Assembly (NCBI GenBank): GCA_018812715.1
Contig: JAHJCT010000017.1
Span: 204,019 to 268,018, forward strand
Reading direction: 5' to 3'
DNA length: 64,000 nucleotides
Source: Candidatus Micrarchaeota archaeon
GTDB taxonomy: Archaea > Micrarchaeota > Micrarchaeia > Anstonellales > Bilamarchaeaceae
Shown piece after piece: positions 14,501-47,293 of the stretch. Under the pieces are notes generated by a model. That model searched no databases and was not told where the DNA came from. It was given only the letters and a program-made list of their open reading frames with translations. Position numbers and translations under genes: made by a program. Every line of letters begins with the position of its first letter. The first letter of the stretch is position 1.

Positions 14501-17097
14501 GCTTGTTCATATTCTCTTAAATTTCCACTAAAAGCCGCTTCTCTAAGTTCTTCAAGATCACTTCTTAAGCTATGCAATGGATAATCTCTGGCTATTGTTA
14601 AATCGCGCTCCCCATGACTTCTTTCATAACCTCTTATCTGTTCAGCAGTAACATATGCTGGAAATGTTCCATCCTCATTTCTTTCACCGAGTGGAATTTG
14701 TCCGGCTTCTACACCTTCTGCTATCGGCTCTCTTCCCCAGTAAATACCTGTTAATCTGTTATAATCAGCAATAAGCATTTCTGTTTGTACGATTCTTCTT
14801 GTTCCTCTATCAAACTGTTGTGCAGCTGCATAATGCTCTTCATCTGTTCCTGCATGCATTTCCATTTCTATTGCTTCAAGCATTATCCTTCTGCCTCTTC
14901 TGTATCCATATGGCACTTCTTCAGTTCCTTCTCGAATCATGCGTTCATGAGTAAATAGTTCATATCTCCAGCCTTCCTCTCTTCCTCCTTCAGCTGCACC
15001 ATAATAATCTCTTATATATTGCAGCAATAGATTTGCTCCCCGATAATCTCCAGCTTCGACTCTTTCTCTTACAATTCCTAATGCTTCATTTATTGTTGTT
15101 CTCCCAACTCCTCTTCTTTGTGCAAATGTCTCCAATCTGTTTGCTTCTGCTTCTATGTAAACTATCTGCGCTAAGTTGAAGCTTTCCATGAAGGCACCAT
15201 CATCACCTGGTTCGCCTTGTGCCATAGCCTGCAATTGTGTCTCCATTCCACTTAGGTGTATTGCATTTTCATCCGTAATTCTGGTGACTCTTCCATTGCT
15301 TACTACTCCAAGCCTTTGCACAGAATCAACATACATTGCAAGAAGTGTAAGTACTCTTGCTGCTTCTTGTGCATTCCCTTGTCTTGCAAGTTCTTCTGCA
15401 CGTTCAAGTGTTTGATTTACTATCCCTATCTGGAAAGTCATTCTTCTTGAACTCCAGTTTTCAATCAGTTCTCTGAATTGATCTGTTTCTCCTCTAACCT
15501 GGTGGTAAATCATTCCTATATTGAACTGCTCACTGGCATCTTCTCCTGCCATTTCACTTTGAAGTGCTTGTTCTATTGTTTCGCGTCCTTCCCAATCCCC
15601 CCAGCGATGCCCTTCATTTCTGTCATAATAAAATGAAATCATGTAAAGTAATCTTCTTGCTCCTTCGAAATCACCAAGCTTGAATCTTTCATCTGCAATG
15701 GCTGCTGCATTTCTGATAAGTTCTCTTCTCTCTTGCCCTCTTCTTCCTGTAATTGCTTGGAACCCTTCAATATCTACAAGCATGTGTGCCATGTCCATTT
15801 CAGTTGAATACTGTGCAAGCATTGATGAAGTAGGGCTTCTTCCTTCAATTATTATATTATATATTGTCTGATAACTCGGCAGATAATCTACTGCATGCCT
15901 ATCTAATTGTCTTGCAGACCGTTCAAGCAATCCTAAAGAAATGGCAAGTGCTGCAAGATTTCTATCTCCTCTTTGCAGTGCATCAAGTGCCTGTTGACCA
16001 TACCATTCCGGACTTTCTTCTGTTACTCTTCCTGTTCCACGTAAACTAGTAGCAATCATAGTCAGGTTTGCATCTCTTTCTTCTTCGCTTAATGGCATCT
16101 CTCTTCCAATTGTCATGAAATAGCTGGTTGTAATTCTTTCAAATTCCAACTGACCAATTATTTGTCCTTGTTCAAGTCTTCTGATTATTTCATCTAGTTC
16201 ATGCCTGAGATTTTCCATTTGCTGTCTCATCTGTTCATTTGTCTGTTGTTCTATTGCAAGTGCTATCTCATCTCTCCATTGGCTGAAGACTGTTGTGTTT
16301 ATCTCAGTCCATTGGTCCTTTATTGTTCCTATATTAGCTTCAAAAGACCAAAGCGATTGTCTATCTTCATGTTCCTGTTCACTAGTATACCCAATCCTTT
16401 GCCTCCCCTGGTTTCCTCTCTCCACTATAAAACCAAAGAGTGCATTTCTTTCCATTTCTACAGCTGAATTGTCGATATTGTAAATAGGAATATTCTCAAC
16501 GTACAATCTCCCTGCTTTTAGTACTGCCTCTGCTCTGCCGTGATTTGTTGTTGCAATATCTAATACAGAAGCTTCCAGGCTATCAAAAATAGTTTCAAGT
16601 GCATCTTCTGATTCCACGCCAGGAATCTGAATATTTTCAGGCATGCCCCCCGTTAGCATATGTAATTCTATATCAAATACATCTCCGACTGTTCTGAGCA
16701 TTGCCCTTGATCTTGTTATCATGTGGAATGATGCAGCAATGTTTCCTTCTCCACCAGTTGTTCTTGCATCATTTAATATCTGCTGAACTAAATCGAGTTC
16801 ATCCGTATACCTTTCTCCAAGTATTGGCAGTGCAGTTACTCTTAATCTCACTTGTTCCAATGTTTCTTCTGTTCTTTCTACTTCTGAATTAATGTATTCA
16901 ATAGTTGCATCATCAGGCCTGACAGTTAAGGTTCGCGCATGATCCTGGAGTGCACTAATCTCTCCAAGCACTTCATCCAATCCCTGTTCTAATTCTCTTC
17001 TTTGTTCATCCATTGCTTCTATTCTTGTTGGAATGATTGCAATTGGTAATCGTGTAATCTCCTCCTCTTCAGGTCTTTCTATTGTTGTTCCTCCCAT
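8533..17097 (-). CDS. Giant membrane protein, 2854 aa. TPR-like N-terminal region, central block of 4-5 TM helices, repeat modules, Trp-rich module and a conserved C-terminal domain.
   Basis: Single uninterrupted ORF. TPR-like segments (GDFEGARRLLYMISFYY, GDYRGANLLLQYIRDYY). Hydrophobic helices around 12960-13390 (FWTTVGLTAVGVVACLVPGG, WLMFGGIIATMGIGGLAGVL, IFLTAMAAFPWAHMA). IEAQRGELAPLL matches the VEAQREHLAPLL repeat of the upstream giant. Trp-rich module 10480-10700. C-terminal YRLLTSTIDRDMQLREGYGLTVSGEGEGLSVEV is shared with the 1463-aa protein. Confidence 0.85.
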   Translation of the reverse strand: MGGTTIERPEEEEITRLPIAIIPTRIEAMDEQRRELEQGLDEVLGEISALQDHARTLTVRPDDATIEYINSEVERTEETLEQVRLRVTALPILGERYTDELDLVQQILNDARTTGGEGNIAASFHMITRSRAMLRTVGDVFDIELHMLTGGMPENIQIPGVESEDALETIFDSLEASVLDIATTNHGRAEAVLKAGRLYVENIPIYNIDNSAVEMERNALFGFIVERGNQGRQRIGYTSEQEHEDRQSLWSFEANIGTIKDQWTEINTTVFSQWRDEIALAIEQQTNEQMRQQMENLRHELDEIIRRLEQGQIIGQLEFERITTSYFMTIGREMPLSEEERDANLTMIATSLRGTGRVTEESPEWYGQQALDALQRGDRNLAALAISLGLLERSARQLDRHAVDYLPSYQTIYNIIIEGRSPTSSMLAQYSTEMDMAHMLVDIEGFQAITGRRGQERRELIRNAAAIADERFKLGDFEGARRLLYMISFYYDRNEGHRWGDWEGRETIEQALQSEMAGEDASEQFNIGMIYHQVRGETDQFRELIENWSSRRMTFQIGIVNQTLERAEELARQGNAQEAARVLTLLAMYVDSVQRLGVVSNGRVTRITDENAIHLSGMETQLQAMAQGEPGDDGAFMESFNLAQIVYIEAEANRLETFAQRRGVGRTTINEALGIVRERVEAGDYRGANLLLQYIRDYYGAAEGGREEGWRYELFTHERMIREGTEEVPYGYRRGRRIMLEAIEMEMHAGTDEEHYAAAQQFDRGTRRIVQTEMLIADYNRLTGIYWGREPIAEGVEAGQIPLGERNEDGTFPAYVTAEQIRGYERSHGERDLTIARDYPLHSLRSDLEELREAAFSGNLREYEQASETYWNRLSLIATRVHRRSTVVDAEVILRQGNDALTEAFRAYVINMCGGGTTGERAWQTAWDYGHDVGAFTTTSNGLSLMADYIEQHPETFGAVSDLEMGRLRQVIYLSTEVDALLTQMDGIEYTTDDLPIYGEGLRGGTVMSYLLELVQGESRAAMAYSQIGQQIEVNDEYLRMIRIGGGDRFSLAEDNLRDCNTDLQRAQNLILEGRFQEAEEAYEAAIDHRITAMASYEGRSAMNLTATGIENFLEGAERLGEAIFFPEDFAEFMRSEPDRSYWDAYREMQTDSMHYILFGRGGSGSQERMQLDLNGARIVEASIFAIPADSGSQMFAEYAVDQGNVYALVGMGRFDDANAIIDRMQERVADHQFWTTVGLTAVGVVACLVPGGQLFGGSLFATMAFDQIVTEYRVQGEASWTSWLMFGGIIATMGIGGLAGVLRTEAQFAQGTAYATRMTQVVRALNYTNIGIGVGFSGYMGYHAVDAFSEGNMREGIFLTAMAAFPWAHMAGSRGWQAMRARPVRGTTEARTETELVAEEIRAPEPREVPIEIEPNEIPSVREAQRLRTPEEMFEFMRELRSEDPTVRDGAQARLRTLPEEVQGRIMQFMETGSIGNTSFMHVPEALVTGEMTPLARGNMTSVIDMIFRGPEPPTPGPRGGRPVTEVESTGTLQPGRLDWLLEGLLTPEGTTARENVVHRAAAQQTLENIRAENPEVAEIIDGLIRNPSVRHYFETGEATPFSQRALENARSQIEAMFEPEAVAMAVNDYNYYIEDVVASEMARRPHLVEGEGPMMIRQMPEVRAMAEEGGARPPGVQQGGIGPVDTTVGGGQGGGGGPVRPIPEVRWGRFERMYRFGRERWQNWRSDRVERNARAELPEAEEVLSTTGEGVRNTLDMVLDPELAQLEISRARTRATELEVRVEELREGGARPEEIRVAEQEAQTARTEAVELENLLNSSPQRIADIMKSLYDTAQTARGETSGYWNLLRRIYSRPNVRAQLETLAETDPVLRDILNRTGRTIESGARNAGISPEDYMAVQAREGFSANDVEVMIRAIEAQRGELAPLLRTQELLGIEYTPLERASLLPRLEGSDIIPPQMLVRELAGVQNSVEGRIREIPIADEPVTNVIRRTLLERSSQGGNVNDVLTEILRSPEVERAVRERYGREAAEIYRDAVQNNRTVDEILNVLEQGRAVEGAEPQFVPREMRTPLEGFVRNISQDPAFAQEFSAINALRPRINQVLDQASTAADVFARDTRPLRDDAINIGWRILRFLNNWEPLTNWGARRFVNSIRNAVPGGRIRAGLRNSPYLIPQAIAWYVIGNYAWDNVLLPWYNSLNSAGSVEEGRRLCERDFGNLCAGASDEDLEWLATEEGRRFFFHMPNALPRGRDRRPGNVEDLNQLLQRTDILIEPRRLGEIVADGREMGGRLDDINDLLSDMRRGDAEDRREAELAAILEPWGLTVDDVQGILSQERKEEVDITDLFDLRIPQWRERGLVIDFRDAVADAFCVDTGLISEGEAESGRYTREGGQRVDFLTSNTDVFAYLWEAVQGGHIPSVYLDNIMNDLTSEGRITELRQQVTSERDIYQVLEAHLRSQNLYIEVIEEDGTVTGIRQNSFLGLLDVRASLDPGFRDTYEQLLNQYRENNEALLAFNAFNIEDIRYGEENRVIGGDAIYGNPQELAALILESETPGEAVEAARQRGFVGSAVLGYMEPRLFDPENAHLVTFIAERSDEERLGFVRWLLDHRDNIRGHVLEIIEDASQHSTVPGPGRYTEIYEYLDRRATVYRSNGWWDGATPAEEQAREERERSRGTVTREETVEPVGEEFEAQYVRRPGFEVMTPRREDQIDVEEVHAPPATLSPEAQRFYANEESTLTPLLDGTIDRMIEARNDDGTLTEDAQAMVNAYGPEINSEDAETRERARDVVRADIKAEMYRLLTSTIDRDMQLREGYGLTVSGEGEGLSVEVDRRTARNGLRNHIMQYVSRRGER

Positions 17098-17106
17098 TTT
17101 TTCACC

Positions 17107-17430
17107 TCAAGTATATTCCTTACACATAAGTACAAAATCCTGCAGCCTCTCAAGTCTCGCCTTTTCATTATCTTTTCCTTTCACTGCTTTTTTCTGCCAT
17201 TCAACCAGCTCATCATGGAATTTTCTTATTTTTTCTATCTGTGGCTCCATACTCCTGCTTTTTACCTTTGAAGCCTCCCATTTTGCAAGGAATTTTTCTA
17301 TTACAGTAATAGTATGATTTACCCTGTTTATTGTATTTTTTTCAACAGAAGCAGCATCAGTCTTAACAGGTATTTTCTTCTTGGAGATTTTTTTCTTTTT
17401 TGAAGATTTTTTCTTAGCCATCAGAAGCAC
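17107..17430 (-). CDS. Small lysine-rich protein (107 aa) immediately upstream of the 2854-aa gene
   Basis: Its ORF ends 9 nt before the giant's start codon. K-rich and AT-rich like the housekeeping genes, not like the giants. The N-terminus MAKKKSSKKKKISKKK suggests nucleic-acid or acidic-partner binding. No family recognised. Confidence 0.45.
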   Translation of the reverse strand: MLLMAKKKSSKKKKISKKKIPVKTDAASVEKNTINRVNHTITVIEKFLAKWEASKVKSRSMEPQIEKIRKFHDELVEWQKKAVKGKDNEKARLERLQDFVLMCKEYT

Positions 17431-17511
17431 CTAAAAATTTATGGCGCTCCAACTTTATAAATTTGTACTATTTCACATAGAATTAGAAAAATATTATAAA
17501 AAATAAAAGAA

Positions 17512-20500
17512 TTATTCATTTTCTCTGCCTACAAAGCTCAGAGTGTGTCTCTCTATGCCTCTTCTGGCTCTTCCCATATCTGTTATTTGAACAGCGAACT
17601 CTTCGCCTTCACCACTTACAGTGAGTCCATAGTCAGTACGGTGCTGTACGTCCCTTCGTATATCACTTGTAAGAAGTCTATACCACTCTGCTCTTATTGC
17701 CATTTCAGTTTGTTCTCTGTTCCCTTCAAATGCACTTCTTAGCAATTGACCGTCTTCTCCTTCATCAGTGAAGAGCCTTTCCAGGGTTCCGTCCAACATG
17801 CTGTTAAAGTCATTTTCAATAGTATAGAACTGTTGAGCCTCAGCGTTCAATTCTGTACCACTTCTCTCAGTTCCAGTTCCTCTAAATCTTTCTACTTCAT
17901 TGATGTATCCTGTATCAACAGCCCACTGTACACGAACACCTTGTGGATCTGAGAATGGATTATAGTCAGATACATTTCCACCATCTGCTTTGTGCCTTTG
18001 CAGTTCTTCAACAAATTCTTCAAGACGGTATCTGTTGAGTCTGTATCGTGCACCTCTGGTATCGACAAAGCTTGTCAGGAGCTCTCTTATATCCTGGTTT
18101 GTTGGCGCAAGAAGAGTGTATGCCATGCTATCTGAAATATCAAATTCAGAAAGTTCTCTTCTTAACTCCCTTCTTGCATATTGTTCAGAGGTATCTTCAA
18201 CCCATCCATTTGTTCTTGCAGTTGCCATTGCTTCATTGAATGTTTCTTCTAACATTACATCAGTTACAGGAACACGTCTTGTTTGCAATGTTTGTCCTTC
18301 CCCAGCTCTTGCTTGTGTTTTTTCTTCCCAAAGAGTAACAAATGCTTCTCTATTTTCTGGTTTGAGGTACTCGGTATGCTCTCCCCTTTCAGCCACTAAT
18401 GGAAGCATAAGTCTTCCTACTCTATCTCTTCCTTGTGCAAAGACAAAATCCACTAATCCAAGATCTGCTATATTATAATTATCCATTACTCTTTCTTGTT
18501 GCTCAGATACGAGGAATCCTCTTTCTACCCATTGCCTTGTATGTTCATTCATATAGTCATAGTCAACTGTTGCCCTCGTTCCCTCTTGTGCCATTAAATA
18601 ATCAACAAATTCATTTGTCATATTCCTGTTGAGTTTAAGGCCATCGGTTATCACAGTATATTCTACATCGATTATACAACAGAACTGATTTCCTGATTCC
18701 CATTCATCTTCAATTGCTAGTGGTTCCCAGTTTTCTACATCATCCATACTTTCAATACCAAGTTCTCTGCATGAATTAGGTATTACTAATCCCGGTGTTG
18801 CTGGAGGCCTTTCAACTGCTTCTCCTGTTCCCTCGGCTACTTCATTAGTTCCTTCAGCTACCTCGCCAGTTCCTTCTGCATTTTCTTCTCTAGGCGGAGG
18901 TTGTGCTCTAGAGGTAGAACCTGCACTTGTTTCCTGAGAACAATTAGCTATGTCATCATCATCCAGTTCGTTTACATCTCTAACATGTTTCAATGTTCTT
19001 CTCTCTTGGAAGAATGTAAGAACACCTTCATTATCATGTTCAACTTGATTATCCCTTAGCCAGTCTAATCTTTCCTCACCTGTAACTCCATATGCAGTTG
19101 TGTAATAACTATCCTCTCTTTCTGCAAGTCGTTCTGGAATGTCGTAACTATCATTTATCATTCTCTTATTTGAGAGCTCACCTTGCATCGGAGACCACCA
19201 TTCCCAAGGTGCTCGGTCGAAGTGGTTTCCAAAATGATTAAAGCTCCAACGCCATGGCATCGCATTCCATGAGAATGGATTGTACCAATGACCTGTAGTT
19301 GATGTACCAATGCGATAGGTCCAAGGTTTGTACCATGCTCCGTTTGGTGTTGTTGTCATCCATTCATTTGGTGATGTGAACCATGCAACACCAAAAGATC
19401 CTATCAAGTATGCTTTGAGTGCTCCTTTCCAAAGTCCCCTCAACCATCTCGGGTAATGTTGGTATGTGTGAGCCTTTCCTGTAATTGGATTTCTACCAAC
19501 AACTTGCTTATTCCAATTTCGTTTCTTAAGATCATCAACTGTTTCTCCAAAGCCCCAACTTGAAAGTCTTCTAAGACGCCCACCTCTAAAATTACCTTGT
19601 GACTTTCCTATCCATGCTTCGCTTGTAAATAATCTCCAGAACCATTTATCTTTGAACTTTTGCCATTTTCCTACAGTTACTTTTGGAGACGGATCCCAGC
19701 TTTCTTTTGTAGCTTCCCAGATCGTTCTTGCTATAACAAATTGACCTTGAGGTATTTCACCTAAGTTTTCAGCAGTTCTTTTATGAAGCATTTCAACTGA
19801 TTTTTCAGCTGCTTTTCCTAATGGCTTGGAATACTTATTTTCTATTTTTACCAGCATCTCTTCTAATGAAGCACGAGGATACTTTCTAGTTTCTATTGCC
19901 TTTACAACTGTCAGCATTCTTTTTCTTACTTCATCAGGCAATTCTGCTCCTTCTACTTTTGTTCTTAATGCAGTTGCTTTTGTATCAAATGCTTCAAGCT
20001 TATATCTGAAAAGTTCTTCGCTTTCACCTTTACCTTTTCGTTCTTGTATCACTGCATCATATTCTGCTTTAGTAATACTTCTTGCTCTAAGCAGTTCATC
20101 CAATTGTTCTGCAGTTTTTGTTCTCAATCCTTGTTCTGTTGAAGGAATACCAAACAATTGCTGGCAGTCGTCCATACGATCAAGAACTTTCTTTGTATCT
20201 TTCATCAATTCACTGATAACTGGATTGCCTAGCCACTCTCCTGCTCTATTTGGAAGTTCATGAATTAATTCTGTACTCACTTCTCTGCAGTCAAGCATAT
20301 GCTTTTTGAAGTTTTCAGAGTATGTCCGTACTACATTTTCAAATCTGCCATTTTCAGTTCCTTGTATTCCACCTAATTCTGCTGAAAGTGTATCAAATAT
20401 TTCTTTTGCTTGAGTATACTCGTCCTCTATTCTCGCCCCCCTAGCAGACAAACTCAGTCCACGGGTATTAAATTCACTAATTCGCTGTCTTGCAATTACT

Positions 20501-21903
20501 AATTCTTGTTCTGCAGTATCCTTCTCTTCAGTAGCTTTTCTTTCTGCATCCTCAATCTGTTTTTGTGTTGCTTTTGCCTTTCCTTCTGCAACAAGCTGTT
20601 TTAGTTTTACAACTTTATCATACTGTTCTGTTTTTTCTACAACAGTTGCTTCGGCTCGTTCAACCAGTCTCTCTGCATCTGCCCTTTCGTTTCTAAATTC
20701 TGAAATTTCGTCATCTATTGCATCTACTCTTGCTGCACTTTCTTCCATGACGCTTTCAGCAGCAGCTCTCCGTACCATCATGTCTTCAACAGTTTGTCGT
20801 TGGCTTGGTCTGCATGGTCCAAATCCTTCAACATCAACAAAATGACCTGTTCCTGGAATACCTAGCCCTTCAACTGTCTCATTTGTAGGTGTTAAAAGAA
20901 TTGCACGAACGAATTGCCTGAAATTATCTGCAGCCATATCTATTGCTATAGATGTTCTTGATTCAAGATAAGCATCCACATAACTTCCATCAAGTACACG
21001 ACGATTAGTTTCTTGAGTATTCTCCGAGTCCATGCTTCTGGTCCCAGAAAGTTGCTTTAAAACACTACCTATGAATTCTCCTTCTTTTCCTGGGCTGAGT
21101 CTTTGTGCGACATTTTCAAGAAATCTAAAGAATGCGTCTGGAGGTAACGCTACTCCTTCTGGCCATGTTTCATGAGTCCACAATGATTCATATAATTTAT
21201 CTCCCCTTTCATCTCTTACACAATTTCCTTGTTCATCTTCTTGCTCAATCGGATTCCCCTTATCATCTAATTTAAATCTAGATCCGATCATTTGCGAATA
21301 AATAATATCAATTCTATCAGCATCAAAATCTTCGACTCTTCCTTCACTTAACTCTTGAGCAAGTCTTTGCCTTACGGCATACATTCTTTCTGCATACGCA
21401 GTATCAAGTTCTTCAAGCGGTGTCGGCACCGTCGGTTTCTTCAACCCATCAATAAATTCTTTTCTGCATACAATCTCTCTTATAAGCATATCAAAGCCAG
21501 AACTTGTCCTGCCCTGTCCTCTTCGTATTGCATCTACCAATTCTAATGTAAATTTAGTCAAATACTCTGCATTTGCTGTATCAGCACCGCTTTGCGGGGT
21601 TCCTCCGGCACCATGCCGTGTATCTTTATCTTGCCCTCGTTCTCCTCTCAGTTCTTTTAATCTTTCTTCTTTAGCAAATTCAATTCTTGCGTCTTTATCT
21701 GCTCTTTTTCGAGCTTTATGATCTTTTCTTAATTCAGGACTTAATGCAGCCCCCAGAACGGGCACTCTCTCTGCCATATATTTGTAACTCTTTGCAGAGC
21801 GACTTTCTCCACCTCTTGCCCAATCAAATACTCTTTGCCTTATACCAGCTTTCTCAGCCTGTTTATCTCTTCCCTGAGCCCTATCTATAACACTACCCGT
21901 CAT
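17512..21903 (-). CDS. Giant protein, 1463 aa, paralogous to the 2854-aa protein. Coiled-coil N-terminal half, Trp-rich module and a conserved C-terminal domain.
   Basis: Uninterrupted ORF. Trp-rich module 19190-19680 (WFWRLFTSEAW...GGRLRRLSSWGFG...YLIGSFGVAWF...PWEWW) aligns with the 2854-aa segment WRILRFLNNWEPLTNWGARRF...GGRIRAGLRNS...YVIGNYAWDN. The last ~100 aa (AEAQQFY...WYRLLTSDIRRDVQHRTDYGLTVSGEGEEFAVQI) align with the 2854-aa C-terminus. TATA-like TTTACTATTTAAT and GGAGG lie upstream of the ATG. Confidence 0.85.
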   Translation of the reverse strand: MTGSVIDRAQGRDKQAEKAGIRQRVFDWARGGESRSAKSYKYMAERVPVLGAALSPELRKDHKARKRADKDARIEFAKEERLKELRGERGQDKDTRHGAGGTPQSGADTANAEYLTKFTLELVDAIRRGQGRTSSGFDMLIREIVCRKEFIDGLKKPTVPTPLEELDTAYAERMYAVRQRLAQELSEGRVEDFDADRIDIIYSQMIGSRFKLDDKGNPIEQEDEQGNCVRDERGDKLYESLWTHETWPEGVALPPDAFFRFLENVAQRLSPGKEGEFIGSVLKQLSGTRSMDSENTQETNRRVLDGSYVDAYLESRTSIAIDMAADNFRQFVRAILLTPTNETVEGLGIPGTGHFVDVEGFGPCRPSQRQTVEDMMVRRAAAESVMEESAARVDAIDDEISEFRNERADAERLVERAEATVVEKTEQYDKVVKLKQLVAEGKAKATQKQIEDAERKATEEKDTAEQELVIARQRISEFNTRGLSLSARGARIEDEYTQAKEIFDTLSAELGGIQGTENGRFENVVRTYSENFKKHMLDCREVSTELIHELPNRAGEWLGNPVISELMKDTKKVLDRMDDCQQLFGIPSTEQGLRTKTAEQLDELLRARSITKAEYDAVIQERKGKGESEELFRYKLEAFDTKATALRTKVEGAELPDEVRKRMLTVVKAIETRKYPRASLEEMLVKIENKYSKPLGKAAEKSVEMLHKRTAENLGEIPQGQFVIARTIWEATKESWDPSPKVTVGKWQKFKDKWFWRLFTSEAWIGKSQGNFRGGRLRRLSSWGFGETVDDLKKRNWNKQVVGRNPITGKAHTYQHYPRWLRGLWKGALKAYLIGSFGVAWFTSPNEWMTTTPNGAWYKPWTYRIGTSTTGHWYNPFSWNAMPWRWSFNHFGNHFDRAPWEWWSPMQGELSNKRMINDSYDIPERLAEREDSYYTTAYGVTGEERLDWLRDNQVEHDNEGVLTFFQERRTLKHVRDVNELDDDDIANCSQETSAGSTSRAQPPPREENAEGTGEVAEGTNEVAEGTGEAVERPPATPGLVIPNSCRELGIESMDDVENWEPLAIEDEWESGNQFCCIIDVEYTVITDGLKLNRNMTNEFVDYLMAQEGTRATVDYDYMNEHTRQWVERGFLVSEQQERVMDNYNIADLGLVDFVFAQGRDRVGRLMLPLVAERGEHTEYLKPENREAFVTLWEEKTQARAGEGQTLQTRRVPVTDVMLEETFNEAMATARTNGWVEDTSEQYARRELRRELSEFDISDSMAYTLLAPTNQDIRELLTSFVDTRGARYRLNRYRLEEFVEELQRHKADGGNVSDYNPFSDPQGVRVQWAVDTGYINEVERFRGTGTERSGTELNAEAQQFYTIENDFNSMLDGTLERLFTDEGEDGQLLRSAFEGNREQTEMAIRAEWYRLLTSDIRRDVQHRTDYGLTVSGEGEEFAVQITDMGRARRGIERHTLSFVGRENE

Positions 21904-33862: not shown

Positions 33863-34425
33863 AGCTTGTAGTTATTGAGGGTATAGACGGCTGCGGGAAG
33901 GAGACTCAGATAAAACTCCTAAAAGAAAAGTTCCCTAACGCAGTTGTATTCAAATACCCAACGAAACGCTATTCTTTACTCAATGACTATCTTGAAAAAA
34001 AAGCTGAATTAAACCCAAAAGCCCTTTTCCTTTTATTTCTCTCAGATATAGCCAATGAGCAGAAAAAAGTAAAAAAAACCCTTGAAGATGACAAACTTGT
34101 AATTCTGGATCGCTATGTTTTCTCAACTATTGCCTATGAAATTAATGGCATCTCTTACAAACAAGGAAAAAAAATTGTCGAAGATTGTGATTTTCTAAAA
34201 CCCGACATGGTTCTTCTCCTTGATATAACCTCAGAAACTTCACAAAGTCGTAAGAAAAAGCAAAAACAGCTCGATCGTTATGAAGAAAATGCAGAATACC
34301 TCGAACAAGTAAGATCAAATTTTTTGAAACTCTCTGAAGAAAGGTTTTTAACACCTAATTGGCACAGAATTGACGCTAGCAAGGATATAAATTCAATCCA
34401 TGCAGAAATAATGAAACTTCTTTAG
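33859..34425 (+). CDS. tmk: Thymidylate kinase
   Basis: MKLVVIEGIDGCGKETQ P-loop and the DRY motif (LDRYVFS). The start at the ATGA overlaps the upstream stop. Confidence 0.8.
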   Translation: MKLVVIEGIDGCGKETQIKLLKEKFPNAVVFKYPTKRYSLLNDYLEKKAELNPKALFLLFLSDIANEQKKVKKTLEDDKLVILDRYVFSTIAYEINGISYKQGKKIVEDCDFLKPDMVLLLDITSETSQSRKKKQKQLDRYEENAEYLEQVRSNFLKLSEERFLTPNWHRIDASKDINSIHAEIMKLL

Positions 34426-34609
34426 CTGCGTTCGTCTAGTCCGGCCAAGGATAGTGGACTTTCACAAACTTTTTGAAAAACAGCAAAGAACTTTGTTCTT
34501 TGTGCCCCATGAAAACCATTCGGTTTTCATTCGGGAAGTTTGATCAAAAACCAAATCTCGAAAAGTTTGAAGAACTCCATTGACCTGGGTTCGAATCCCA
34601 GACGCAGCA
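34425..34609 (+). tRNA. tRNA-Glu(UUC) with an intron of about 112 nt at the canonical 37/38 position
   Basis: Acceptor GCUGCGU/ACGCAGC, D-arm GUC-UAGUCCGGCCAAG-GAU, anticodon stem GUGGA/UCCAU around loop CUUUCAC, T-arm CUGGG-UUCGAAU-CCCAG, discriminator A, no encoded CCA. The intron ends AAACUUUU and AAAAGUUU can pair as expected for a bulge-helix-bulge motif. An oligo-T follows. Confidence 0.8.
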
Positions 34610-36235: not shown

Positions 36236-36548
36236 TGGAGTGGGCTTTCTGCTTGAAAATAAATTTTCAAGATCAGCCAACTTTGCATAAGCAAAGTGGG
36301 CTTTCCAGTTAGCCTTGACATGAATATAAGGAGCCAATATCCGCTACTCAATCCTGGATCTTATAAGCACGGAACGATACATTTAGGGCTGCTTCTTCCG
36401 ATCTGACCCGGTTCATATATAATCCCGCCACATAAGGCAGGACGTCAACGCTTAAGATACTGGGCATACATCCACGGCAAAACGCCCCAGACCTTCGAGT
36501 CGCCTAAGGGGATTTGCGATGCCGGGACCCCTAGCCCCGCTCTAGCCC
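36236..36548 (-). ncRNA. Signal recognition particle RNA (7S / SRP RNA)
   Basis: The minus strand reads GGUCAGAUCGGAAGAAGCAGCC, the helix-8 GGAA-tetraloop and GCAGCC motif of SRP RNA. Alu-domain-like 5' loops (GGGGUCCCGGCAUCGC...GACUCGAAGGUC). Helix-6-like hairpin CCUGCC-UUAUGU-GGCGGG. The 5' GAGCGGGGCU can pair with the 3' AGCCCACUCC. The 3' boundary is approximate. Confidence 0.75.
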
Positions 36549-36585
36549 ATTATTATAACGAAATTCTCCTTTTTAAAACGCATAC
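36549..36585 (-). promoter_or_regulatory. TATA-box promoter of the SRP RNA
   Basis: On the transcribed strand CGTTTTAAAAAGGAGAATTTCGTTATAATAAT precedes GGGCUAGAGC. The TTTTAAAAA element sits about 25-32 nt upstream of the inferred 5' end. Confidence 0.5.
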
Positions 36586-43103: not shown

Positions 43104-44216
43104 TTATCTGCTTTTGCAATAGTGCAAAGCCAATGCTTTATATGCATCTTTCCATTCTTTGATGCTTTTCATTCCTACATGTTCATTGGATCGATGAATT
43201 ACTTTGTTACCATTTTCATCATAACCAGTTGGTCCCATGCTAATAGTCGGAATGTTTTTCTCTGTGAAAAAATGCCCGTCACAGCCGCCCAATTTAATTC
43301 TAAGCTCTAACTTCCTTTCAAGTACTCTCTCTGCTACTTCTTTTGCATTTACAACTAATTCGTGATCTGGAGCAGTATACATTCCCTTAATCTTCATACT
43401 TATTTCAACTTTTGATTTTTCATCCATGAGACTCTCAAGATACTTCACAACGTTTTCCATATCTTCATTCACTGGCACTCTAATATCAAGTCCAAAGTAA
43501 CACTCTTCAGGTATTACATTGATTGTTTCTCCACCTCTGAAAAGTCCAATATTGCATGTTTTTAGATTAACTGATTCATCTCTAGTTGCTTTCAATATCA
43601 GTATTTTATCTTCAGCTATTTTGTTGATGATACGAATTGCTCTAAGAACAGCACTATCACCTGCATAAAGGCGTGACCCGTGTGCTCGTTTTCCAAATGT
43701 TTTTACATCTGCCCGAACAAGGCCTTTGTGCGCATATGCAATTCCTTCTCCACTTGGTTCCCCAATTACCATTCTTTTTGCATACAATCCTCTTTCTATA
43801 AGAGTCCTTGTTCCATGCTCTCCTCCTTTTTCTTCATCCCCAACAACCTGCAGAATTACCTTTCTCGAAAGATCCTCTTCAGCAAGTTCTAAGTATGCTA
43901 CAAGCATAGCTGCTAATCCGCCTTTCATATCAGTGGCTCCTAACCCGTAAAGCTCTCCACCTTTTATCACAGGTTCAAGCGGATCCGTTTCCCACCCAGT
44001 TCCTGGCGGCACAGTGTCATAATGTCCATTAAATCCTATCTCTGCCTCCCCTTCTCCAATGGTAGCATGTATATTCTTCACACCATTTGATTCAATTATT
44101 GACATTTCTATTCCAGATGTTTCAAGAAGTTCCTTTATGTAGAAAAACGGCCCATCTGCTCCATCATAACTTTTAAGCGCTATAAGGTCTTGAGTTATTT
44201 TTACTGGATCCATCAA
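43104..44216 (-). CDS. M20-family peptidase / deacylase (ArgE/DapE-like)
   Basis: GHYDTVPPG, GATDMKGGLAAM and the metal-ligand E of the dimerisation domain. 370 aa. Confidence 0.8.
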   Translation of the reverse strand: MMDPVKITQDLIALKSYDGADGPFFYIKELLETSGIEMSIIESNGVKNIHATIGEGEAEIGFNGHYDTVPPGTGWETDPLEPVIKGGELYGLGATDMKGGLAAMLVAYLELAEEDLSRKVILQVVGDEEKGGEHGTRTLIERGLYAKRMVIGEPSGEGIAYAHKGLVRADVKTFGKRAHGSRLYAGDSAVLRAIRIINKIAEDKILILKATRDESVNLKTCNIGLFRGGETINVIPEECYFGLDIRVPVNEDMENVVKYLESLMDEKSKVEISMKIKGMYTAPDHELVVNAKEVAERVLERKLELRIKLGGCDGHFFTEKNIPTISMGPTGYDENGNKVIHRSNEHVGMKSIKEWKDAYKALALHYCKSR

Positions 44217-44869
44217 ATCAAACCTGCAATAGAATTCAATATCAAAATGCCAAACATACTAACTACTACAAAGAAAAGAAAAATATTTGCTAATTTCATA
44301 AGTTCGAATACATCTTCTACTGATTTCTTTGTTTGCCCCAGTGTTTCTCTTTGGGATTGTACTCCGTCTTTTATATCGCCGATGTCTTCTCCCAATTCAT
44401 TTACTGTTGTTTTTTGCTCTTCAAATGCGGATACTGTTTCATTTAATTCCTGTGCCGATTCTTTTAATGATTCTGCAGCTTCCATATACTCTTCTTCAGG
44501 CATATCTACTCCAAGGCCTTCAATTCCAGATAATATCTCGCCAGTGCTGTTCAATGCATCTGCAGTTGATTGCAGCCCTTCTGAAAGTGGTTCTATCGAT
44601 TCCTGAAGAGATTCAAGTGCAGTGTCAGTAGAATTTAGCCCGCCTTCCAATGTTTCAAGTGTTTCTTCCATTTCAATCATATTTTGTCTTGCTTCTTCAA
44701 GATTGTTCAAAAGAGAGTTTTTGGTTTTGTCCATTGCATCGTTTATGATGAATACCAATACCAACAAGATAAAGCAACCTATAAATGCAATCGCCAATGA
44801 TGCTGCACGAAGAGGTTTTTTCAAATGTTCTAGTTTGAATTCATCCTCTTCAGATTTCTTTTTGGCCAT
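44213..44869 (-). CDS. Membrane protein with N- and C-terminal TM helices and a central acidic coiled-coil
   Basis: Hydrophobic LAIAFIGCFILLVLVFII and IFLFFVVVSMFGILILNSIAGLI flank an E/L-rich region. No family recognised. Confidence 0.5.
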   Translation of the reverse strand: MAKKKSEEDEFKLEHLKKPLRAASLAIAFIGCFILLVLVFIINDAMDKTKNSLLNNLEEARQNMIEMEETLETLEGGLNSTDTALESLQESIEPLSEGLQSTADALNSTGEILSGIEGLGVDMPEEEYMEAAESLKESAQELNETVSAFEEQKTTVNELGEDIGDIKDGVQSQRETLGQTKKSVEDVFELMKLANIFLFFVVVSMFGILILNSIAGLI

Positions 44870-44927
44870 AGTTCTATCACTACATCTTTATTCTTAAAAT
44901 TTTGTTTTATTTTTTAGTTAAAAGTAT

Positions 44928-45045
44928 AATGCAGGAGGCGCTTGAATCGAGCTTCATTACAGTCAGTTTTTTGCCTCACTTTTCAAGGATCAGTTTTTTG
45001 GTTCTTTTTTCCTAAAAAAGAACAATGCAGGAGGAAGGACATTCG
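44928..45045 (+). repeat. Direct repeat copy 1 (~115 bp) flanking the PIN/antitoxin cassette
   Basis: Shares an ~85-bp identical core AGCTTCATTACAGTCAGTTTTTTGCCTCACTTTTCAAG[G/A]ATCAGTTTTTTGGTTCTTTTTTCCTAAAAAAGAACAATGCAGGAGGAAGGA with 45787-45903. Contains the palindrome GTTCTTTTTT-CCT-AAAAAAGAAC. Confidence 0.85.
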
Positions 45046-45087
45046 TAATTAGTACAGTGCAGACCCCCGAAATCTCGAGGACAGAGT

Positions 45088-45507
45088 TTATAACTTCTGC
45101 CCCAGCATTTCAATGAGTTCTTTTGTTGTGAGAACCTTTACCCCTTTCTGTTTCTTGAAGTGTTTATCATCACTCCAAATAGGAGCTTTGGTTGCCAAAG
45201 CTGCCGCAATGAACGGGACATCAGCTGAATCTATTTTTTCCATTATCCCCTTTGCTTCTCCCATGTATATAACAATTATTTTATCGTCTAGAATAGTCAT
45301 TTTTGAAAAAAGCTTGTTCAGAATCATCTCGAGATCTGTTTCTGATATTTTTGCTTTCTTGAGAATCTCCTTCTTATGATTGCCTAGTTCTTCCATTGAA
45401 AAGCCAATCGTAATGAGTTCTCCATCGAAATGGGTGATGATTTTCCTGGAAACCCCATCTCGCACTAGGGCAGCGATGATTCTGTTGGTATCTACAACAA
45501 GCCTCAT
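45088..45507 (-). CDS. PIN-domain ribonuclease (VapC-like toxin)
   Basis: N-terminal LVVDTN signature, central D and C-terminal acidic residues. 139 aa. Overlaps the upstream small ORF by 4 nt. Confidence 0.75.
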   Translation of the reverse strand: MRLVVDTNRIIAALVRDGVSRKIITHFDGELITIGFSMEELGNHKKEILKKAKISETDLEMILNKLFSKMTILDDKIIVIYMGEAKGIMEKIDSADVPFIAAALATKAPIWSDDKHFKKQKGVKVLTTKELIEMLGQKL

Positions 45508-45725
45508 TTTGAGAACCTTTTTCTCATTTTAGCTTTTACGTCATGGCCTATTCTCTCGGCATCTTCTTCAGTCATCTTACTGTTCTTCAGAACTTCGTCC
45601 ATCCAATGCAGCTCTCTAATTTTCTTCTCGAAAGCCTGTCTGGCCACGTCGCTCCATTTGAGCTCTGAATGGGCAATCATCTCTTTGTAGAGTTCTTCTG
45701 GAATCGAAAGCGTCATGTTAACCAT
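45504..45725 (-). CDS. Putative antitoxin of the PIN toxin
   Basis: 73 aa. It sits upstream of and translationally coupled to the PIN gene. The N-terminal MVNMTLSIPEELYKEM is typical of ribbon/AbrB-like antitoxins. Confidence 0.55.
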   Translation of the reverse strand: MVNMTLSIPEELYKEMIAHSELKWSDVARQAFEKKIRELHWMDEVLKNSKMTEEDAERIGHDVKAKMRKRFSK

Positions 45726-45786
45726 AATCTCACCTATTTGTATTATGTGCTAACACATATTTAAAGCTTTGCTACAAAAATGAGAA

Positions 45787-45903
45787 AATGCAAGAAAGGC
45801 ACTCGAAGCAAGCTTCATTACAGTCAGTTTTTTGCCTCACTTTTCAAGAATCAGTTTTTTGGTTCTTTTTTCCTAAAAAAGAACAATGCAGGAGGAAGGA
45901 TTG
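45787..45903 (+). repeat. Direct repeat copy 2 (~115 bp)
   Basis: See copy 1. Both copies lie about 60 nt upstream of a minus-strand gene start (44869 and 45725). Confidence 0.85.
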
Positions 45904-46179
45904 ACGGCACTATTTTAGAGCACCAGTTTTTGGTGCAGCTTTCTAAAAAGGTGCATTCGAACCTTCGAAGGCGCGTAGCCCATGTGCCTTTTAGTAAAAG
46001 GCACCCCAAAACGGGGAGTTACATGTTAAGCCAGCAGATTTCCCAAACCGCAATTGGAAAAGGAAAATAACGCGACTATTTACGACCTTGTTTGTTGTTC
46101 CTCAGGCCTTTTTCCAGGGTTTTTGGCCGTGGAATGGCAGAGGTCAAAAGGCCCCTTGAGTCTGCCACGTTTGACCGCT

Positions 46180-46362
46180 TCGCTACTCCTGCAGAAACTT
46201 TCCTTAGATGAAACAATTGTTAAAGTTTCATCAAACTTCCTGAGTTTTCCTCAGGATTGGAGTTGCGAATCGTGAACGGATTGCCGTTCAGGTACTTCGC
46301 TACTCCTGCAGAAACTTTCCTTAGATGAAACAATTGTTAAAGTTTCATCAAACTTCCTAAGA
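46180..46362 (+). repeat. Two tandem copies of a ~66-bp unit (46180-46245 and 46297-46362) containing the palindrome GATGAAAC-N10-GTTTCATC
   Basis: TTCGCTACTCCTGCAGAAACTTTCCTTAGATGAAACAATTGTTAAAGTTTCATCAAACTTCCT occurs twice, 12-190 nt downstream of the ferredoxin stop. A third partial copy lies at 47262-47293. Confidence 0.8.
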
Positions 46363-46373
46363 AAAAATAAAAG

Positions 46374-46646
46374 TTAATACTCTACAACCACCTTGCCTTT
46401 CTTTATCTTGCATTGGCAAAGCAATCTTTCATCAGAACTTCCACCAAAAATCTCCAAACCTGCCTTTTCTGTTTCATTGGCCGGTTCAAGATTCTCCATT
46501 CCTTCAAGAACTTTCACTTTGCATGATCCGCAAGTTCCTGCTTTACATGCAAAAAGAATAGAACACTTTCCTTCTAGTTCAACAAGTGATGAACCATCGG
46601 GAACTTCAATTTTTTTTCCTTCATTTTTGATTTCTACAGTTGCCAT
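46374..46646 (-). CDS. [2Fe-2S] ferredoxin (plant/adrenodoxin-type fold)
   Basis: CKAGTCGSCKVKV plus a downstream Cys (LLCQC) match the 2Fe-2S ferredoxin cluster-binding pattern. 90 aa. Confidence 0.75.
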   Translation of the reverse strand: MATVEIKNEGKKIEVPDGSSLVELEGKCSILFACKAGTCGSCKVKVLEGMENLEPANETEKAGLEIFGGSSDERLLCQCKIKKGKVVVEY

Positions 46647-46658
46647 AAAATCACACCA

Positions 46659-47240
46659 TCATTTTCTTGCGAAAACAAGATAAGCTGTATGCATAAGACC
46701 AAAATGCTTGGGTCTGAATCCTCGCTCTCTTGCCTCATATTCTCTTACAATTCCTTCTATTGTAAACACTTCACTAAAAACCCCTTCAGCAGCAATATGG
46801 AGTGCTTTTGCCTGTTCTGCATGCAAACAATGTGCTGCCAAATATCCATTCTTCTTCAGTGCCTTGTCTGCCATTTCAACTACTTTTTCTGCTTCTGCTA
46901 TATCACAAAAAACAAGATCCCAGGACCCATCGTTTTCATCTATTCCCTCCAGTACATCTTTATGCCTGAAAGTAACATTTTTCAATCCGCTGCGCTCAAC
47001 ATTTTTCTGTGCAAGGGCTAAAAATTCATCTCGTTTCTCATAACTTACGACTTCTTTAACAATATTGGCCAGTTGGACTGTCATAAAGCCTGTCCCTGAA
47101 CCAAGTTCAATTACTTTTGATTCTTTGCCAATGCCAGTATACCCAATTATCAATCCTGCATCCTTTGGTTGTGTTACTGCTGGGCCTCCTCTTTTCAATT
47201 TTGTCAATAATGCAGGAAAATGAAATTCAGTTTTCTTCAT
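46659..47240 (-). CDS. SAM-dependent methyltransferase, TrmI/Gcd14-like (tRNA m1A)
   Basis: QPKDAGLIIGYTGIGKESKVIELGSGTGFMT resembles the TrmI pKD..I motif and SAM motif I. It is shorter than typical (193 aa). A PIMT-like alternative cannot be excluded. Confidence 0.5.
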   Translation of the reverse strand: MKKTEFHFPALLTKLKRGGPAVTQPKDAGLIIGYTGIGKESKVIELGSGTGFMTVQLANIVKEVVSYEKRDEFLALAQKNVERSGLKNVTFRHKDVLEGIDENDGSWDLVFCDIAEAEKVVEMADKALKKNGYLAAHCLHAEQAKALHIAAEGVFSEVFTIEGIVREYEARERGFRPKHFGLMHTAYLVFARK

Positions 47241-47261
47241 AGAAACTTTCCTCCGGCCATT

Positions 47262-47293
47262 CTCATGTTAAAGTTTCATCAAACTTCTTAAGG
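47262..47293 (+). repeat. Third (half) copy of the GTTAAAGTTTCATCAAACTTC element
   Basis: CATGTTAAAGTTTCATCAAACTTCTTAAGG lies between the purE stop and the trmI-like start. Confidence 0.7.

Follow-up and report, generated by a model that had tools for sequence, protein, structure and literature searches.

Gene order and the toxin–antitoxin pair

The 64,000-nt stretch of Micrarchaeota DNA analysed here (the window) contains a small toxin–antitoxin (TA) cassette enclosed by two copies of a long direct repeat. We are concerned with the origin of this repeat, one copy of which supplies the 3′ end of a tRNA-Leu(CAA) gene that had gone unannotated. The genes at the locus are all on the minus strand, in the order Fer2, 470 nt of non-coding DNA, repeat copy B, antitoxin, PIN_2 toxin, repeat copy A, a gene for a 218-aa protein and an M20 peptidase gene (Table 1). 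The host is a DPANN archaeon (Micrarchaeota), and the best relatives of the M20 peptidase are found in metagenome-assembled genomes of Candidatus Micrarchaeota, at no more than 57% identity; the PIN protein is 100% identical to one from a genome of this kind. In the distant syntenic relatives recovered through this peptidase (L003–L008) the 218-aa/M20 gene pair is kept and the region upstream of it is not comparable.

Table 1. Features of the repeat-bordered locus (window coordinates; a dot marks features assigned to no strand)
Feature	Position	Strand	Remarks
Fer2 gene	46374–46646	−	
tRNA-Leu(CAA), unannotated, three inserts	45887–46192	−	clean ARAGORN cloverleaf after in-silico splicing guided by orthologues
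T-loop insert, 55 nt	45900–45954	−	without counterpart in orthologues L036, L038 and L039
Repeat copy B	45797–45900	−	last 14 nt of tRNA-Leu(CAA) (45900–45887, TCCTTCCTCCTGCA) and 90-nt hairpin/A-tract module
Hairpin GTTCTTTTTT-AGG-AAAAAAGAAC, copy B	45862–45884	.	begins 2 nt past the tRNA end; both strands have a T6 run
TA promoter/operator (predicted)	45726–45772	−	TATA box TTTAAATA (45765–45758) and palindrome ATGTGTTAGCACAT (45745–45758)
Antitoxin, 73 aa, RHH_12-type by homology	45504–45725	−	88% identical to RHH_12-tagged homologues
PIN_2 toxin, 139 aa	45088–45507	−	PF10130, E = 1e-27
Conserved cassette 3′ module CTCGAGATTTCGGGGGTCTGCACTGTACTAATTACGAATG	45040–45087	−	leads into the core
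Repeat copy A	44936–45039	−	detached tRNA-3′-end fragment (45039–45026) and second hairpin module; between PIN stop codon and 218-aa gene
Hairpin, copy A	45001–45023	.	65 nt downstream of the PIN stop codon
Third, degenerate partial copy	44900–44938	−	74% identical to the repeat start
218-aa membrane/coiled-coil gene	44213–44869	−	conserved chromosomal flank; adjoins the M20 peptidase gene in distant relatives too

The two genes between the repeats overlap by 4 nt and have the layout of a VapBC-like type II system, with a PIN-domain toxin behind a small DNA-binding antitoxin in one operon. The pair is intact and is a predicted toxin–antitoxin. For comparison we used related loci (designated by L numbers, such as L036), which are the contigs of the closest PIN homologues (79–89% identity), together with two loci, L038 and L039, that a motif search in JGI metagenomes had turned up. 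The predicted promoter and palindrome lie in the 47 nt before the antitoxin ATG; these are identical in L036, differ by one base beside the ATG in L031 and L032, and by one to three bases in L034, L040 and L043, while the TA proteins of lineages separated by these zero to three promoter changes differ by 11–21%. Upstream of the 47 nt, similarity stops sharply in every genome compared. A nearly invariant promoter with such an abrupt upstream edge suggests either strong constraint or a recombination boundary. At the other end of the pair, the module leading into copy A recurs in other genomes, where it closes TA cassettes and a Ymh cassette. A scan of IMG/VR gave no match to this module, and no relatives of the PIN protein were found there.

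The direct repeat

The first-pass annotation of this DNA had described repeats of ~115 bp with a perfect core of ~85 bp. The repeats are present but measure 104 nt; the copies are spaced by 861 nt and agree at 99 of the 104 positions. What had been taken for a single perfect core is in fact two perfect runs, of 38 nt (44950–44987 in copy A) and 51 nt (44989–45039), split by one G/A mismatch. The remaining four mismatches all lie at the gene-proximal end, beyond which a weaker similarity of the copies can be followed for ~30 nt more. The opposite end of the repeat is an abrupt stop, at 45039/45040 in copy A and at 45900/45901 in copy B. From the gene-proximal ends it is 67 nt (copy A) and 72 nt (copy B) to the ATGs at 44869 and 45725.

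Each copy carries, as already noticed in the first pass, the palindrome GTTCTTTTTT-CCT-AAAAAAGAAC; no further copy was found in the 64 kb when up to three mismatches were allowed, and shuffled sequences also gave none. The short sequence ATGCAGGAGG, which is the reverse complement of the tRNA-Leu acceptor 3′ strand, occurs at 44929–44938, 45025–45034 and 45886–45895. Both units had been said to begin and end with it. Copy A does so, whereas copy B has it only at its end and starts with the degenerate form ATGCAAGAAAGG.

Apart from these two copies, a scan of the whole window detected only the degenerate 39-nt partial copy listed in Table 1. An exact 44-mer of the repeat had 0 matches in GTDB representative genomes and the IMG/VR scan gave none for the repeat, so that our statement that there are no other copies covers the 64-kb window, the GTDB representatives, IMG/VR and the JGI motif scan. 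Two contigs (L001 and L002) taken from Logan for SRR2540949 end inside the repeats, and no other arrangement was seen in them.

Several identities were considered for the 104-nt unit and discarded. It has no terminal inverted repeats and no dispersed copies (two in 64 kb, none in GTDB or IMG/VR, and two JGI matches at the same locus), both of which would be expected of a miniature inverted-repeat transposable element or insertion sequence. Nor does it appear to encode a structured RNA: apart from the 23-nt hairpin, both copies fold on both strands no better than shuffled sequences, with z-scores for the whole unit between −1.0 and +0.6. No Rfam family was assigned to it, either at the gathering threshold across the window or at E ≤ 10 across 44700–46500, where the best matches had E = 0.34–9 and weak SNORD57 and Atu_Ti4 matches are noise. 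A C/D-box small RNA was rejected for its wrong box order and the lack of a significant model match, and a small peptide because a 2-nt indel in copy B interrupts the 28-codon frame seen in copy A.

Copy B ends a hidden tRNA-Leu(CAA) gene

The key to the repeat lies in the non-coding DNA behind Fer2. BLAST of the window's intergenic DNA against all loci revealed that the 270 nt following Fer2 are conserved in L036 at 72.5%. The L036 stretch ends in ...GCGCCTTCGAAGGTTCGAATCCTTCCTCCTGCA, which reads as a canonical T arm (GAAGG-TTCGAAT-CCTTC), the acceptor 3′ strand CTCCTGC and the discriminator A; the conserved stretch opens with the complementary 5′ strand GCAGGAG, after which come a D arm and the anticodon loop CTCAAG. 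With its intron option, ARAGORN recognizes the unspliced L036 gene as tRNA-Leu(caa) and a paralogous gene in L031 as tRNA-Leu(taa). We chose insert limits and splice points from an alignment of the four orthologues (window, L036, L038 and L039), and with the inserts removed all four give clean class II tRNA-Leu(CAA) cloverleaves in ARAGORN. The anticodon-stem pair 27–43 varies compatibly among them (G-C, A-T, G-T). The segment 45887–46192 is thus a tRNA-Leu(CAA) gene, identified in silico and with predicted splicing.

Three inserts interrupt this gene, which makes it invisible to default tRNA finders: ARAGORN with default settings reports no tRNA in the window, and Rfam also misses tRNA-Leu. 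The anticodon-loop insert, at position 37/38, has ~115 nt and by inspection a good bulge–helix–bulge (BHB) motif, with central helix CTCA/TGGG and 3-nt bulges. The variable arm holds an insert of ~51 nt. Finally, the T-loop insert has by inspection a BHB-like frame made of the T stem, AAT bulges and a GCAC/GTGC helix, with two of four pairs in the central helix; its 3′ limit coincides with the repeat boundary at 45900/45901. Inserts of this kind are plausible since Micrarchaeum has the broad-specificity epsilon2 splicing endonuclease (PMC3239211).

The sequence TCCTTCCTCCTGCA, with which the repeat opens on the gene strand, starts at the last base of the T loop and runs through the 3′ strands of T stem and acceptor to the discriminator of this gene. 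After splicing in silico, copy B is therefore the 3′ end of an otherwise complete tRNA gene, and copy A starts with the same 14 nt detached from any tRNA. The partial third copy likewise opens with a tRNA-end core, GCGCCTCCTGCA (44941–44930), preceded by the T-loop-like sequence GATTCAAG; it is probably an older attachment-site (att) remnant that now forms the upstream region of the 218-aa gene.

Other tRNA features of these loci are recorded here. The tRNA-Leu(CAA) orthologues of L038 and L039 carry a D-loop insert of 113–140 nt instead. Elsewhere in the window, at 34425–34609 on the plus strand, lies a tRNA-Glu(UUC) gene with a 110-nt anticodon-loop intron, seen only with the ARAGORN intron option. 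This intron and the D-loop insert of tRNA-Leu(CAA) in L039 are clear relatives (their local alignment scores 55, shuffles 18.6 ± 3.7), a kinship that suggests a family of mobile introns. Upstream of the tRNA-Leu(CAA) gene (46245–46361, minus strand) there is a tandem copy of the tRNA promoter and nt 1–15, followed by a short hairpin and inverted nt 1–14. The same design precedes tRNA-Leu(CAA) in L040 (~5402–5470) and tRNA-Leu(UAA) in L043 (~5480–5540), and the inverted arm tracks the tRNA type (TTCGC or TTTGC). The element might act as a small RNA or in processing, or be left over from a 5′ att site. A promoter-like repeat of 67 nt occurs at 46178–46244, 46295–46361 and 47226–47292 (minus strand), serving the tRNA, the upstream hairpin element and, in a diverged form (64%), the methyltransferase gene at 46659–47240; its sequence TTTAACAA ends 24 nt before tRNA +1.

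The hairpin module

The 90 nt of the repeat beyond the tRNA end, a hairpin followed by A-tracts, will be called the hairpin module (HM). A variant of the hairpin, AAAACTTTTTT-AGG-AAAAAAGTTTT, is present in L036, L038 and L039; its outer stem is AAAAC/GTTTT where the window has GTTC/GAAC, and it is still self-complementary. A scan of JGI metagenomes with the pattern core, 3–6 nt, CTTTTTTAGGAAAAAAG returned two matches, both at a Micrarchaeota tRNA-Leu(CAA).

These loci show what the site can look like with a different content. L038 lacks the cassette and any second core: its tRNA-Leu is directly followed by an HM, which here precedes a gene on the opposite strand. L039 has the same flanks as the window, with methyltransferase and Fer2 genes upstream and DUF424-ACT-NFACT downstream, and between its tRNA and HM lies a TFIIB gene bounded by a second core. 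In L036 the HM follows the core behind the TA cassette. The module is thus normally single and stands on both sides of the TA pair only in the window. Its start is strongly conserved (46 nt 100% identical in L038 and L039, 47 nt identical in L036 and L038, 96% over 53 nt between L036 and L039), while the neighbouring TFIIB regions of L038 and L039 are only 88% identical at the DNA level. In the window and in L039 the last part of the HM is a tRNA 3′ fragment in decay, T-loop bases included (GATTCAAGCGCCTCCTGCA and GGTTCAAGCGCTCCTGCA, respectively). The module represents either former flanking DNA downstream of the tRNA or an ancient cassette, of which it would be the remnant or the left end.

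The hairpin is probably a bidirectional oligo-T terminator or a left-end inverted repeat of a cassette. Archaeal RNA polymerase terminates at oligo-T tracts, and the first of these roles is suggested by the T6 run 2–10 nt after the tRNA end and another one on the opposite strand.

As to the neighbouring genes, the TFIIB gene after the HM in L038 (2258–3196) and between tRNA and HM in L039 (4693–5625) is a paralogue of a general transcription factor that looks like movable cargo. A 300-aa open reading frame (ORF) of L039 is not homologous to the 218-aa gene.

tRNA-3′-end cores border cassettes in related Micrarchaeota

A short core, (CC)TTCCTCCTGCA, derived from the tRNA 3′ end borders successive small cassettes downstream of tRNA-Leu(CAA) or tRNA-Leu(UAA) in related Micrarchaeota. 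In all, this core of 11–13 nt was found at ~12 cassette junctions in at least six genomes, always in the same orientation and always ending in TGCA. The cargo includes a TA pair, an ATPase, a kinase, TFIIB and a Y1 transposase; the units measure 0.1–1.9 kb, and no integrase was found in them. At the locus itself the 9-mer CCTCCTGCA is strongly over-represented, with three occurrences within 1 kb, all on the gene strand, compared with one other match in the 64 kb.

The most instructive relative is L036 (GCA_016926175.1), which shares the PurE, methyltransferase and Fer2 genes with the window and has four CCTCCTGCA sites within 4.4 kb, all intergenic and co-oriented. Its cores bound, in order, the tRNA end, an ATPase_2/DUF234 gene, an RHH_12 + PIN_2 pair, a CPT-like kinase and a Y1 transposase. 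The last of these, of the IS200/IS605 type, is followed by a reverse transcriptase gene (RVT_1) on the opposite strand (L036 5805–7498).

The TA module lies beside tRNA-Leu genes or between tRNA-3′-end cores in at least six other Micrarchaeota contexts, and in L031, L032, L034, L043 and L049 it ends in a core or has one before it. In L031 the order is tRNA-Leu(UAA), a 233-aa gene with the TA pair, core and UvrC. L032 contains an identical 233-aa + TA unit with the same left-end sequence, joined not to a tRNA but to the 3′ module of a cassette with a Ymh gene. The right flank shared by L031 and L032, TTTAGTACTTAGTACAG..., accordingly has different left partners, and the switch between them falls inside the core. 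A methyltransferase and the TA pair stand between two cores in L034. An intron-less tRNA-Leu(UAA), the TA pair, a 3′ module with core (CCTCTCTCCTGCA) and AsnC follow one another in L043, and in L049 the TA pair stands behind a core and ahead of a truncated ...TCCTGCA. The pair directly follows tRNA-Leu(CAA) without a second core in L040, and it is found at other places without a core in L045 and L050.

Each cassette-end core is preceded by a short inverted repeat of one of two classes, CTGYACTGTACTARNTAC... or CAGAG...CTCTGG, and an inverted repeat is also found within 25 nt of many cassette starts. In the window, the 48-nt stretch separating the PIN stop codon from copy A (45087–45040) falls into the first class. 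In IMG/VR the tRNA 3′ end was found only in a phage tRNA array (L047) and as a tRNA-Leu-like fragment in L048, neither of them informative. The latter, a T-arm and acceptor fragment (GGAGGTTCGAATCCTCCCTCCTGCA) at 10867–10888 of a viral contig with 51% GC, lies inside a gene for an SNF2-family helicase and is not embedded in a tRNA gene.

Probable integration at the tRNA-Leu 3′ end

We consider it likely that the repeats are the attL/attR-like products of a site-specific integration at the 3′ end of tRNA-Leu(CAA). Direct repeats flank an inserted block, the TA operon; one of them completes a tRNA gene; and unoccupied or differently filled sites with the same junction exist in relatives (L038, L039, L036 and L031/L032). 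Among archaeal integrated elements, recombination with the 3′-distal part of tRNA genes is the usual case (PMC6563490). The first-pass suggestion that the repeats are the footprint of a mobile TA cassette is supported by these observations, and is made specific by the tRNA-Leu(CAA) 3′ end and the core-bounded TA modules of the relatives.

A possible course of events is as follows. The ancestral locus would have consisted of Fer2, tRNA-Leu, a single HM and the chromosomal flank with the 218-aa gene and the M20 peptidase. A small circular DNA of ~861 bp, a presumed intermediate, could then have recombined with the T-loop/acceptor 3′ segment of the tRNA, the attachment site being the tRNA-Leu 3′ end from T loop to discriminator. 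This circle would have carried the core CCTTCCTCCTGCA, an HM with a now-degenerate internal core CCTTTCTTGCA, the RHH/PIN_2 operon and the conserved 3′ module, and the crossover presumably took place inside the core. Such an integration would keep the tRNA intact and set a second core beside the resident HM, giving the order tRNA, HM, TA pair, core, resident HM, third core and 218-aa gene. The incoming HM was presumably acquired earlier through an excision between non-adjacent cores at the same locus of a related strain. The recombinase, most likely a tyrosine integrase, would have acted in trans.

That the incoming DNA already carried an HM would explain why the duplication spans 104 nt and not 11–25 nt as elsewhere. 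For this long form the counterexample named in the first-pass annotation exists, since relatives carry the cassette with only 11–25-nt cores (L036, L031 and L043) or with none (L040, L045 and L050). The long repeat is consequently a local accident of the DNA that was carried in and not a fixed part of the cassette. In the resulting arrangement, the T6 runs of the hairpins most likely terminate the tRNA and TA transcripts, the latter at copy A, and insulate neighbouring units from each other. The TA pair would be driven and autoregulated from its own promoter–palindrome, and probably stabilizes the insertion.

A number of points weigh against this interpretation. No integrase or other recombinase was found in the 861-bp cassette, the window or the related arrays by a six-frame scan of the window and key loci for tyrosine-recombinase motifs and by Pfam searches of 16 of the ~53 window ORFs and of 10 locus ORFs, the sole transposase-like gene being the Y1_Tnp gene of the L036 array. 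No circular or empty-site form of this exact strain was seen. The identity of the copies for 90 nt beyond the tRNA is unusual for att sites. Their mismatches, one in 90 nt and then ~8 in the next 28, are also unlike those of a single clean duplication, so that gene conversion or differential constraint must be invoked. TFIIB stands on opposite sides of the HM in L038 and L039, and in L038 without core boundaries, and a rule that units always insert at the tRNA end is therefore insufficient. Lastly, the splice points that restore the tRNA were our own choice from the alignments.

A possible extension, and alternative explanations

The arrays could be part of something larger. Micrarchaeota might carry an integron-like gene-capture platform on tRNA-Leu, with the T-arm/acceptor 3′ end of the tRNA as primary site, recombinase-free cassettes of 0.1–1.9 kb that end in a mimic of it (an inverted repeat and then (CC)TTCCTCCTGCA), a recombinase provided in trans, and non-canonical tRNA inserts possibly seeded by activity at the T loop. 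We put this forward tentatively, as a rather doubtful generalization.

A closer variant of the integration described above, relying on the same core-based recombination, supposes that the HM is a mobile mini-cassette in its own right (~96–115 nt, bounded by cores) which landed twice, the TA cassette merely happening to lie between the copies. The variable position of the module, which follows the tRNA in L038, a TFIIB cassette in L039 and the TA cassette in L036, fits such a behaviour, as do the near-identity of its start in these three loci beside a TFIIB region at 88%, and its limits in the window and in L039, where a core precedes it and a core-like tRNA 3′ fragment closes it. Yet in every data set, be it the 64-kb window, the GTDB representatives or the JGI matches, the module is confined to this one tRNA-Leu(CAA) locus, and we judge an independent mobility of the HM to be improbable.

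A local duplication by replication slippage or unequal crossing-over, with the TA genes added by illegitimate recombination, would need no recombinase, and none was found; it would also suit the fuzzy boundary of the repeat on the gene side. The resemblance to the tRNA end would then have to be a coincidence or the result of old decay. Chance and slippage are nevertheless insufficient because the 11–13-nt core recurs co-oriented at ~12 cassette junctions in at least six genomes, each time ending in TGCA, which makes this explanation very improbable in our eyes.

Next to no weight is left for the proposal, also contained in the first-pass annotation, that the repeat is a duplicated promoter, operator or other cis-regulatory module common to the TA operon and the 218-aa gene, with its palindrome as the antitoxin site: each copy does lie 67–72 nt upstream of a same-strand gene start and contains a perfect 10 + 10 palindrome, but the TA pair has its own TATA box and ATGTGTTAGCACAT in the adjacent 47 nt, which are outside the repeat and nearly invariant across lineages, the sequence above these 47 nt is unrelated in L031, L034, L036, L040 and L043, none of which has an HM there, the repeat begins inside a tRNA gene, and the HM of L038 precedes an opposite-strand gene.

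Other features of the window

Two further observations concern distant parts of the window. The signal recognition particle RNA at 36296–36550 (minus strand) matches the bacterial large model of Rfam (65 bits, just above the cutoff) and not an archaeal one. Two very large ORFs of 2854 and 1463 aa occupy 8533–21903 (minus strand) and share an internal repeat (8622–8718 and 17601–17697) that is 70% identical.

Significance and comparison with known systems

Interpreted as integration at tRNA-Leu, the locus is a tRNA integration hot spot in a DPANN archaeon, and a repeat that was unexplained becomes a concrete statement. A minimal TA cassette travels with a tRNA-3′-end fragment across Micrarchaeota lineages. 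If the cassettes are actively mobilized, they would amount to a simple way of capturing genes in organisms whose genomes are tiny and for which little mobile DNA is known. The locus is also a natural example with which to examine the idea that element integration and tRNA gene disruption are linked. In practical terms, neither the tRNA nor the att sites of this locus will be picked up by annotation pipelines. Events of this kind are already known and ordinary; the arrays of integrase-less mini-cassettes and their setting are the interesting part.

Integrative elements that target the 3′ ends of tRNA genes, including att sites of tyrosine integrases, gene capture in archaeal chromosomes and tandem arrays at a single tRNA, have reportedly been treated by Reiter et al. 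1989, Williams 2002 and She et al. 2001. With such elements the locus shares a repeat of a tRNA 3′ segment flanking foreign DNA, an intact tRNA, a boundary in the T loop, relatives with empty or otherwise filled sites, and cargo of an accessory or defence type. It differs from them in the size of the unit of only 0.86 kb, the lack of a detected integrase, the identity that continues for 90 nt past the tRNA, and the conserved 3′ modules shared by unrelated cassettes.

Parallels are also offered by the cis-mobilizable elements (CIMEs) and the accretion–mobilization at att sites of integrative and conjugative elements (ICEs), which are known from bacteria with an identified cognate ICE, as at the fda locus of Streptococcus thermophilus. 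Here, too, att-flanked units without recombination genes of their own build up in tandem, with an enzyme presumably supplied in trans. The Micrarchaeota arrays differ in their far smaller units and their DPANN host, and neither a donor element nor an integrase is known for them.

A resemblance to integron cassettes and to clusters of attC sites lacking integron-integrases (CALINs), as described for archaeal integrons (PMC9668308), is found in the small and mostly single-function cassettes, an end site with an inverted repeat, TA cargo and the joining of new units at one fixed primary site. This site is in our case the end of a tRNA gene. The paper on archaeal integrons mentions neither Micrarchaeota nor tRNA. 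True integrons with IntI/attI and promoterless, co-oriented cassettes can be set aside: the search for an IntI gene was negative, the TA pair is served by a promoter of its own, and the opposite strand encodes the ATPase and TFIIB cassettes, giving a mixed orientation unlike that of integrons. Inspection of the repeat and the 3′ modules also gave no RYYYAAC...GTTRRRY core sites of the attC type, and only the 23-nt palindrome folds.

The TA operon resembles VapBC-type II operons in its PIN-domain toxin, the small ribbon–helix–helix antitoxin upstream, the 4-nt overlap and the palindrome at the promoter. The predicted toxin belongs to the PIN_2 family and not to the classical PF01850, for which it scores just below the cutoff.

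The tRNA gene itself invites comparison with multi-intron archaeal tRNA genes, for which a model has been proposed in which the integration of mobile elements disrupts tRNA genes (PMC3293823). As in those genes, inserts occupy canonical and non-canonical sites (D loop, 37/38, variable arm and T loop). As the model would have it, a tRNA fragment and inserted DNA are found together at one locus, where the T-loop insert ends exactly at 45900/45901. The present case departs from the multi-intron genes in that splicing is predicted and the BHB of the T-loop insert is imperfect.

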